Shown: in pieces, positions 11,937 to 13,001 of the stretch
Layout: each line of letters starts with the position of its first letter
Numbering within the stretch: position 1 is the first letter of the stretch
DNA from: Parcubacteria group bacterium
GTDB lineage: Bacteria > Patescibacteriota > Minisyncoccia > Moranbacterales > UBA9337
Assembly (NCBI GenBank): GCA_041662245.1
Contig: JBAZSW010000002.1
Coordinates: forward strand, 11,835 to 75,834
Length of the DNA stretch: 64,000 bases
Reading direction: 5' to 3'
Translations under genes and position numbers: made by a program
The notes under the pieces: generated by a model
What the model saw: only the letters and a program-made list of their open reading frames with translations
The model's database searches: none
Told to the model about the DNA's origin: nothing

Positions 11937-13001
11937 ATGAAGAAGAAAAATTCTAGAAAAATCAAGAAAAATTTGTTTTTTGAAGAAGTTGTCAATTCAA
12001 TTACTCAAGATATCAACGAGCGGGCTATCAAAATGATAGCGGATCGTTTTGGGTTTGGAAAAAAAGATCCGAAAACTCTTGGTCAGATTGGAGAAACTTA
12101 TGGTATTACTAGAGAGAGGGTAAGACAAATAATAAAAGAAGCTATTTATAAGGTAAAACATAAATCTAAAAATGATGAATTATTCAAGGTGGCCGAGGAA
12201 AAGCTTGGTTTTGTTATAAAAGGAAAGCATGGTATAATTTCAAAGAAAGATTTAATAAAAATGATGATAGAAAATGGAGAAGAGGAGAATTTTGTTAGTT
12301 TTATTTTACATTGTTCCGATAATTTTAAAGTTATCGAAGAGGAAAATGAGATAGAAGAGTCAATAATTTTAAATCATTTTGATTTAAATTTTTGGAAGAG
12401 TATAAAAGAAAAAGCTAAAAATATTTTAAATAAGCATGAAAAAACTCTCCATTCTAAGGTATTTTTTGAAGAATTTTTAAAAATTCATCCGGAATTGGAA
12501 GAAGGAATGTTTTTCAATTTTCTGAATGTATCCAAGGAAATTAAACAAGGGGTTTTTGATAAATGGGGAATTCACAATTGGAAGGAGATTTCTCCTAAAG
12601 GAGTTAGGGAAAAAGCTCATTTGATAATAAAAGAGAATAATAAACCGCTTCATTTTAGGGATGTAGCAAAGTTGATTGATGAACATAAATTAAGCAAAAA
12701 GAAAACTCATCCTCAAACTGTTCATAATGAATTGATTAAAGATGAAAAATTTGTTTTGGTAGGGAGAGGAACCTATGCTCTTCGAGAATGGGGATATCAG
12801 AGAGGAACAGTAAGGGATGTTATCGCAGAAATCTTAGCTGGTAGTGCTGAACCACTATATCAAGACGAAGTAATAGAGAGAGTTTTGTCAGTACGAAATG
12901 TGAAAAAAACGACAGTAATTATAAATTTAAATAAATTTTTTAAAAGATCGGATAAGCAGAAGTATCAAATAAAAAATAAAAAAATAAAAGAAGTGGCTTA
13001 A
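11937..13001 (+). CDS. DNA-binding protein with a sigma-70 region-4-like HTH (N-terminal) and a HARE-HTH domain (C-terminal)
   Basis: LGQIGETYGITRERVRQIIKEAIYKV is a textbook sigma70 region 4.2 HTH. The C-terminal LHFRDVAKLIDEH...THPQTVHNELIKDEKFVLVGRGTYALREWG matches the HARE-HTH pattern of RpoE delta, ASXL and restriction-enzyme N-termini. Confidence 0.6.
   Translation: MKKKNSRKIKKNLFFEEVVNSITQDINERAIKMIADRFGFGKKDPKTLGQIGETYGITRERVRQIIKEAIYKVKHKSKNDELFKVAEEKLGFVIKGKHGIISKKDLIKMMIENGEEENFVSFILHCSDNFKVIEEENEIEESIILNHFDLNFWKSIKEKAKNILNKHEKTLHSKVFFEEFLKIHPELEEGMFFNFLNVSKEIKQGVFDKWGIHNWKEISPKGVREKAHLIIKENNKPLHFRDVAKLIDEHKLSKKKTHPQTVHNELIKDEKFVLVGRGTYALREWGYQRGTVRDVIAEILAGSAEPLYQDEVIERVLSVRNVKKTTVIINLNKFFKRSDKQKYQIKNKKIKEVA

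Follow-up and report, generated by a model that had tools for sequence, protein, structure and literature searches.

In the window, i.e. the whole stretch of 64,000 nucleotides (nt) of contig JBAZSW010000002.1 from a Parcubacteria group bacterium that was analysed, one open reading frame (ORF) at positions 11937-13001 encodes a protein in which a sigma region 4 domain is followed by four winged helices. We use the name S4-HARE for this protein and its family. Our best reading of the sequence is that S4-HARE is probably a sequence-specific double-stranded DNA (dsDNA) binding protein that derives from a primary sigma factor and has kept only its region 4. The explanation that we tentatively prefer is that it acts as a -35-type dsDNA-binding factor that autoregulates the three-gene cassette it leads, and that it has a wider essential role.

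Region 4 is the sigma module that reads the -35 hexamer TTGACA. An earlier reading of the DNA made without database searches (the sequence-only reading) had proposed a region 4 helix-turn-helix (HTH) at the N-terminus of the protein and a HARE-HTH domain at its C-terminus, and the peptides that it quoted are both found in the translation, LGQIGETYGITRERVRQIIKEAIYK at amino acids (aa) 48-72 and LHFRDVAKLIDEH ... FVLVGRGTYALREWG at aa 238-286. The domain-profile searches that it had suggested as a check recovered both domains above threshold. In Pfam, Sigma70_r4 (PF04545) matched aa 27-75 with 40.3 bits against a cutoff of 24.1 (E 2.3e-10), and HARE-HTH (PF05066) matched aa 225-285 with 41.3 bits against a cutoff of 25.9 (E 2.1e-10). 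Both domains were present in 120/120 of the best homologues, so the pair is not a chance match. Neither Sigma70_r2 nor Sigma70_r3 matched S4-HARE in Pfam even at E<=1, as expected from the earlier claim that regions 2 and 3 are missing and that the protein is something other than a sigma factor. The NCBIfam sigma models (RpoD, RpoS and MzaA) matched with their C-terminal region-4 segment only, at aa 6-88, where they scored 14-54 bits while their cutoffs are 43-800. S4-HARE is not a sigma factor, because it has no region 2.

We used 58 homologues to build an AlphaFold2 model of S4-HARE. The model was confident (predicted local distance difference test, pLDDT, 90.1; predicted template modelling score, pTM, 0.76) and contained five domains, not two (Table 1). 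The sequence-only reading was therefore right about the presence of both domains and wrong about a two-domain architecture; S4-HARE is a sigma-4 domain plus four tandem winged helices, with linker helices in the model after sigma-4 (aa 81-96) and after winged helix 1 (aa 150-167). The basic domains are also the most conserved ones, i.e. sigma-4 (+4.7), HARE (+6.0) and winged helix 4 (+5.6). Within the HARE-HTH domain the recognition helix PQTVHNELI-D is invariant in the family alignment and K268 is conserved at 90% or more. The C-terminus had also been likened to the RNA polymerase delta subunit, and here the HARE domain stands while the likeness to delta is weak: the delta equivalog TIGR04567 (NCBIfam) scored 33.9 bits where 42 are required, the HARE domain lies inside the protein and is basic, and the C-terminal tail is lysine-rich with no acidic stretch. 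S4-HARE is not the delta subunit, because its score is below cutoff, its domain order is different, it is basic and it has no acidic tail.

The sigma-4 domain is close to that of primary sigma factors. The family profile matched primary-sigma region 4 in the PDB at E about 1e-15, and in a Foldseek search of the PDB the N-terminal part of the S4-HARE model superimposed on SigA region 4 with a root-mean-square deviation (rmsd) of 1.1-2.5 A and 31-39% identity, the matches including 1ku7, i.e. region 4 on -35 DNA. For a direct comparison by BLASTP we used an E. coli sigma-70 sequence (residues 540-613) whose numbering agrees with the positions R584, E585 and R588. No gaps were needed in the alignment, which placed S4-HARE aa 18-82 on sigma-70 residues 543-607 with 31% identity, so that R59, E60 and R63 of S4-HARE fall on sigma-70 R584, E585 and R588. 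All three belong to the invariant sigma-4 columns among 58 aligned homologues, which are R29, R37, G39, L48, G52, R59, E60, R61, R63 and Q64; we take R29, R37, L48, R61 and Q64 to be further DNA contacts. Genetics and the structure of Taq region 4 with DNA have shown that sigma-70 R584, E585 and R588 set -35 specificity (PMC2613000). The suggestion in the sequence-only reading that the protein could bind promoter DNA gains support from this alignment, in which the residues predicted to read the -35 element are invariant. The position that aligns with sigma-70 L607 is not conserved; the substitution L607P appears in papers on the contact between sigma region 4 and the flap.

The promoter of S4-HARE carries a perfect -35 hexamer. 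In the window it has 11/12 consensus matches together with the TG of an extended -10, and lies 153 nt 5' of the start codon. We sampled loci by fetching 80 of 305 relatives from a one-genome-per-species collection, and the layout TTGACA-N16/17-TGnTAnAAT was common to the aligned sites of 48 loci. A perfect TTGACA occurred <=150 nt 5' of S4-HARE in 46/59 non-redundant loci, compared with 24/337 other genes that had an upstream gap of >=70 nt (Fisher p 1.5e-30, odds ratio 46; gene starts are approximate). The rates upstream of DUF8128, mnmA and dprA were 0/31, 0/25 and 0/16 respectively. A search for an operator in the gap between S4-HARE and DUF8128 found only A/T-rich words to be enriched and no TTGACA, and DUF8128 has no -35 of its own.

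An exhaustive profile search found 773 clusters at 50% identity with E<=1e-30. A 90%-identity collection gave 5,531 or more clusters at E<=1e-3, some of them ordinary sigma factors reached through region 4. The best 120 homologues are all about 350 aa long, and their labels in the sources are 'HTH domain-containing protein', 'sigma-70 region 4 protein' and, from Joint Genome Institute (JGI) pipelines, 'RNA polymerase delta subunit'. All named sources of the family are Patescibacteria, or generically or doubtfully labelled metagenome bins; the few relatives in bins labelled Bdellovibrionales or Binatia are probably mislabelled. The 80 loci come from Moranii-, Pacei-, Sacchari-, Doudna-, Nealson-, Yanofsky- and Nomurabacteria. 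There is one S4-HARE copy per locus, with no paralogue in the 64-kb window nor in any of the 80 loci, one of which (L059) has a frameshifted copy. Searches with tblastn of 50,697 phage and 72,556 plasmid records found no full-length relative, only sigma region 4 matches with <=34% query coverage. We therefore rejected the idea of a mobile-element gene, given these records and a housekeeping neighbourhood (dnaB, recR, groES, fmt, def, mnmA and topA). The one apparent fusion, a 659-aa protein (P0304) in which SecF is joined to S4-HARE, was also set aside as a single case that is most likely a merged gene call. When the half containing HARE and winged helix 4 was searched against the PDB, both the single sequence and the profile gave noise only (such as nanobodies and L14e), and the profile did not find the delta subunit structure by sequence.

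S4-HARE is the first gene of a cassette with two others. The sequence-only reading had placed it at the head of a block containing a membrane protein and an ATPase, which is correct in the window, and tblastn with the window neighbours found the three-gene order S4-HARE, DUF8128, coupling-protein-like ATPase in about 70/80 loci. DUF8128 lies directly 3' of S4-HARE in almost all loci, and the flank of dnaB, recR, groES, fmt and def is common only to the eight closest relatives. Independent gene calls on a 408-kb contig gave the same three genes, with the middle one named DUF8128 (PF26449). The gap between S4-HARE and DUF8128 is 60 nt in the window, with a median of about 60 nt across loci and <30 nt in about 17 of them, and only 3 nt separate DUF8128 from the ATPase in the window. 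No terminator-like sites were found between the three genes on the + strand of the window. The short gaps between S4-HARE and DUF8128 are consistent with co-transcription.

Table 1. Features of the S4-HARE cassette (positions in the window)
Feature	Position	Strand	Evidence
S4-HARE promoter: perfect -35 TTGACA (11784-11789), 16-nt spacer, extended -10 TGTGATAAT (11803-11811)	11784..11811	+	Promoter scan
S4-HARE coding sequence: sigma-4 and four winged helices, 354 aa, ATG start	11937..13001	+	ORF listing, Pfam, AlphaFold
Sigma region 4 domain (aa 14-80), recognition helix TRERVRQI	11976..12176	+	Pfam, PDB profile search, Foldseek, BLASTP, conservation
Winged helix 1 (aa 98-148), acidic, family mean charge -4.6	12228..12380	+	AlphaFold secondary structure, charge
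Winged helix 2 (aa 170-216), near neutral	12444..12584	+	AlphaFold, charge
Winged helix 3 = HARE-HTH (aa 217-288), basic (+6.0), most conserved part	12585..12800	+	Pfam, conservation, charge
Winged helix 4 (aa 289-346), basic (+5.6), conserved	12801..12974	+	AlphaFold, conservation, charge
DUF8128 membrane protein (425 aa)	13062..14339	+	PF26449, AlphaFold, Foldseek, synteny
Type IV coupling-protein-like ATPase (687 aa), Walker A GKTGMGKT at aa 34-41	14343..16406	+	Pfam, NCBIfam, synteny
CxxC-x17-CxxC treble-clef zinc ribbon in the variable tail of the ATPase (aa 541-575)	15963..16067	+	PF23477 41.3 bits, TIGR04272 42.6 bits

DUF8128 was modelled by AlphaFold (pLDDT 79) with a hydrophobic helix in its N-terminal part (aa 8-51), and the rest of the model resembled in Foldseek the N-terminal domain of TrwK/VirB4 from the R388 type IV secretion system. 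The best match was 7o43_A (E 6.9e-6) and there were 12 matches at E<=1e-3, with TM-scores of only about 0.35; this modelled VirB4 N-domain-like fold is supportive rather than conclusive. The C-terminal P-x-NLP motif is invariant (P418, N420, L421 and P422), with A417 at 90% or more. The ATPase matched TrwB_AAD_bind with 45.9 bits (cutoff 20.5) and TraG-D_C with 29.9 bits (cutoff 22) in Pfam, and SXT_TraD and the CD1115 VirD4-like model in NCBIfam. It had been described in the sequence-only reading as VirD4-like, and the homology to coupling proteins is confirmed. It appears from its sequence to have no N-terminal transmembrane anchor of its own, since the coupling-protein homology begins at aa 13-22 and Walker A lies at aa 34-41, leaving no room for one; its partner DUF8128 is the protein with the predicted VirB4-like domain. 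The zinc-ribbon motif was found in 52/74 ATPase ORFs of the loci and is absent in the Saccharibacteria and Doudnabacteria versions.

In Saccharibacteria (loci L052, L060 and L077) a single ORF of 870-991 aa encodes DUF8128 and the ATPase together. This fusion indicates that the two act as one unit, laid out like VirB4 (N-domain plus ATPase), and the pair looks like a split VirB4/VirD4-type ATPase. In four loci (L069, L071, L075 and L080) S4-HARE and DUF8128 are followed by a YceG (MltG) homologue in place of the ATPase, which may be encoded elsewhere in these genomes. No virB4-like or relaxase-like gene was a recurrent neighbour within 7 kb on either side of the cassette in the 80 loci covered. 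We found no papers mentioning DUF8128. A 2025 survey reported VirD4-like coupling proteins in 2,918/3,035 Patescibacteria genomes, with 148/5,713 of the proteins near virB4 and relaxases rare, and its authors considered that the Patescibacteria VirD4-like protein was possibly 'exapted for other functions' (PMC12102498).

Several loci show variations on the cassette or its surroundings. Tandem coupling-protein-like ATPase paralogues, about 61% and 44% identical to the ATPase of the window, occur in L064 (6708-9945) and L068 (8226-11479), which agrees with a published mean of about two of these genes in each Patescibacteria genome. In the complete genome CP064960.1 (L054, 8012-10791) DUF8128 and the ATPase are spread over at least three ORFs beside an intact S4-HARE, i.e. 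either the motor has decayed or the assembly contains frameshifts. The pair dprA-topA lies immediately upstream of the cassette in 16/80 loci (among L014-L039, and L077) and in Southlakia epibionticum (SEML1_0296 and SEML1_0298), in two orientations, and mnmA lies 3' of the cassette in 33/80 loci. This neighbourhood may be an ancient syntenic block, or it may hint at a link to DNA uptake.

A likely orthologue of S4-HARE has been included in a transposon insertion sequencing (Tn-seq) dataset. SEML1_0294 of S. epibionticum ML1 has 349 aa, its PF04545 and PF05066 domains lie at aa 27-72 and aa 225-283 respectively, and DPAM assigns three winged domains to it (PMC10633639); it carries the PROKKA label 'RpoS' and is flagged as a member of a core, Patescibacteria-enriched family (PMC10633639, Tables S1 and S2), the families in question being those of Meheust et al. 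2019. Directly downstream lies SEML1_0293, a DUF8128/ATPase fusion of 921 aa with TrwB_AAD_bind at aa 402-719 (PMC10633639), and upstream lie topA and dprA, as in the Saccharibacteria locus L077. The window protein shares with the family a size of about 350 aa, the positions of the domains and the site upstream of DUF8128 and the ATPase. This architecture and synteny make SEML1_0294 a likely S4-HARE orthologue. SEML1_0294 was called essential at all three time points, with 24 insertions in the input and then 1, 1 and 2 (PMC10633639). SEML1_0293 was non-essential, yet its reads dropped about four-fold over the passages (PMC10633639). Both genes are absent from the main-text discussion of that paper, and we found no papers linking HARE-HTH to Patescibacteria.

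We now consider how a -35-type binding factor might work. The sigma-4 domain would dock on TTGACA-type sites, and the basic pair of HARE and winged helix 4 would grip the adjacent DNA. On the -35 of its own promoter S4-HARE would compete with the housekeeping sigma factor, and this competition would autoregulate the cassette, which may form one transcription unit in many lineages. S4-HARE could also occupy other promoter-like sites as an essential transcription or DNA-organising factor specific to the Candidate Phyla Radiation (CPR), by analogy with CarD, RbpA and GrgA, which are lineage-specific general factors. Its tie to the membrane ATPase might be regulatory or might consist in a hand-over of bound DNA.

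Several points weigh against this explanation. The TTGACA specificity of S4-HARE is predicted from homology, and the orthology of SEML1_0294 likewise rests on architecture and synteny, not on its sequence. The genes with which the S4-HARE promoter was compared are mostly low-expression housekeeping genes with approximate starts, and a perfect -35 might merely mark a strong promoter. Over the whole window there is no enrichment of TTGACA, with 27 found and 33 expected. Simple regulators are rarely built of five domains and conserved over such a deep lineage, and autoregulation alone does not explain an essential role. Conservation of the gene order also speaks for a physical link with the ATPase pair, and about such a link the explanation stays vague.

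One alternative, in line with the suggestion in the sequence-only reading that the protein could bind RNA polymerase, is that S4-HARE is an accessory factor bound to this enzyme, with sigma-4 on the beta-flap tip and HARE-HTH on beta-prime like the delta N-terminal domain. It would then do its work on the core enzyme, during recycling, sigma competition or elongation, instead of binding DNA independently of the polymerase. The nearness of its sigma-4 to primary-sigma region 4 (E about 1e-15, and an rmsd of 1-2 A to region-4/beta-flap chimeras) and the use of the fold of the delta N-terminal domain by HARE-HTH (TIGR04567 33.9 bits) are both in keeping with such a placement, as is essentiality, which fits a general transcription role; S. 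epibionticum also has no second PF05066 protein (Table S2, PMC10633639). However, the delta model does not reach its cutoff (42 bits), the HARE domain, which is strongly basic, sits inside the protein with no acidic C-terminal tail behind it, and by sequence the profile of HARE and winged helix 4 reaches no structure of delta. The -35 base readers are among the invariant sigma-4 residues, and the position aligned with L607, of which the substitution L607P appears in papers on flap contact, is not conserved. The conserved link to a membrane ATPase is also left unexplained, and we consider an accessory factor of this kind unlikely. The possibility that S4-HARE is instead a dedicated repressor or antidote of the cassette, essential solely because unrestrained expression or activity of the DUF8128/ATPase membrane complex would be toxic, as with a repressor or antitoxin, would account for an essential upstream gene next to a dispensable downstream one in the Tn-seq data, for a conserved perfect -35 at its own promoter only, with none in the gap upstream of DUF8128, and for the short, operon-like gaps. 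A local repressor would not usually have five domains and be so extremely conserved, however, and S4-HARE is intact in L054 though DUF8128 and the ATPase there seem broken (perhaps by assembly frameshifts). By analogy with antitoxins this could be so, and we think it very improbable.

The order of the genes is best explained if S4-HARE is a DNA-substrate adaptor, i.e. if it marks or holds DNA and hands it to a split VirB4/VirD4-like translocase made of DUF8128 and the ATPase for DNA uptake or export. The three-gene order is shared by about 70/80 loci, which represent at least seven named lineages of Patescibacteria. The predicted fold of DUF8128 is like the VirB4 N-domain, DUF8128 is fused to the ATPase in Saccharibacteria, and the ATPase matches TrwB_AAD_bind and TraG-D_C, the region of TraM recognition. 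VirD4-like proteins are near-universal in Patescibacteria, seldom lie near virB4 and are rarely accompanied by relaxases (PMC12102498), so they would need another partner for DNA recognition; dprA-topA is a direct neighbour of the cassette in 16 of the loci, as it is in S. epibionticum. Work as an adaptor cannot be the only function of S4-HARE, however, because the ATPase fusion is dispensable and the likely orthologue is essential. In addition, four loci have YceG and not the ATPase after S4-HARE and DUF8128, and the cassette does not replace FtsK, since S. epibionticum has a canonical FtsK that is essential. A role of the cassette as an FtsK substitute in chromosome segregation was in fact rejected on this ground, that FtsK having its four transmembrane segments (4TM) and its alpha and gamma domains. 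As the account of what S4-HARE does, we regard the adaptor as improbable, although it has a real if small chance of being right.

A more far-reaching idea, which we regard as a long shot, is that S4-HARE is the DNA-reading subunit of an unrecognised Patescibacteria-wide machine that couples -35-like DNA to the membrane-anchored, split VirB4/VirD4-like ATPase. If true, this would tie transcription, or the recognition of promoters, to the passage of nucleic acid across the membrane, in the form of uptake from or delivery to a host cell.

Other sites in the window may be noted. Perfect TTGACA hexamers that are intergenic and face a gene are found at 25-30 (TrmB-family regulator, 126-863), 3962-3967 (murG, 4072-5175), 25261-25266 (ftsW/rodA, 25477-26604) and 35994-35999 (beta-propeller protein, 36213-37652); these four would be candidate targets if S4-HARE reads TTGACA. 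A further one, at 9483, lies in the 400 nt (9231-9632) between rplU (L21, 8922-9230) and recR, a gap with no convincing ORF and no Rfam match; rpmA (L27), the usual follower of rplU, is not evident. The only Rfam gathering-score matches in the window are two adjacent tRNA genes at 28067-28216 on the - strand.

A large part of bacterial diversity belongs to the Patescibacteria, and for most core genes specific to their lineages a function has yet to be assigned. The architecture of S4-HARE is already present in databases and in one supplementary table, and the gene itself is no discovery. As far as the literature shows, its five-domain anatomy, its invariant -35 readers and its conserved consensus promoter had not been put together before, nor had the link, in all Patescibacteria lineages sampled, to a split VirB4/VirD4-like ATPase and the contrast in essentiality between reader and motor. 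The likely member of the family in the only Tn-seq dataset is essential, labelled 'RpoS' there and left undiscussed. The analysis turns such an unlabelled essential gene into a testable hypothesis, i.e. a sigma-4-derived -35-type reader hard-wired to an orphan coupling-protein-like ATPase, which bears both on transcription control in reduced bacteria and on the role of a near-universal orphan ATPase. Genetics in Saccharibacteria now exists with which this hypothesis can be tested.

Compared with known systems, S4-HARE is like region 4.1-4.2 of the primary sigma-70 factors RpoD, SigA and HrdB, with which it is homologous in fold and sequence and shares the TRERxRQI helix and the -35 readers. 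Sigma regions 2 and 3 bind core RNA polymerase and read and melt the -10 element. Unlike the sigma-70 factors, S4-HARE has neither of these nor region 1.2, and four winged helices follow its region 4. With RpoE delta of Firmicutes it shares the HARE-HTH winged helix (PF05066), although in S4-HARE this is the fourth of five domains and basic, whereas in delta it is N-terminal and followed by a polyanionic tail. As a tandem winged-helix protein it gave full-length Foldseek matches to the SelB C-terminus (1lva), Dcc1, ESCRT-II and a chain of the RNA polymerase III pre-initiation complex (8iue_P), but with identities of 10-15% and TM-scores of 0.2-0.3, i.e. a likeness of architecture only, with no functional link.

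The DNA readers or adaptors of FtsK/VirD4-type motors include TraM with TraD, TcpK with TcpA, PcfF, FtsK gamma and the winged helix of Streptomyces TraB. The cassette resembles TraM-TraD, TcpK-TcpA, FtsK gamma and TraB in that an HTH or winged-helix reader is genetically coupled to a membrane ATPase of the HerA/FtsK superfamily. It differs from these motor adaptors in that there is no sequence kinship, no relaxase or oriT is evident, and the likely orthologue of the S4-HARE reader is essential but the motor is not. A likely counterpart is SEML1_0294, which is similar to S4-HARE in length and domain coordinates and also has a TrwB_AAD_bind ATPase directly downstream; in S. epibionticum, which belongs to another class (Saccharibacteria), the DUF8128 and ATPase that are separate proteins in the window are joined in one protein of 921 aa.

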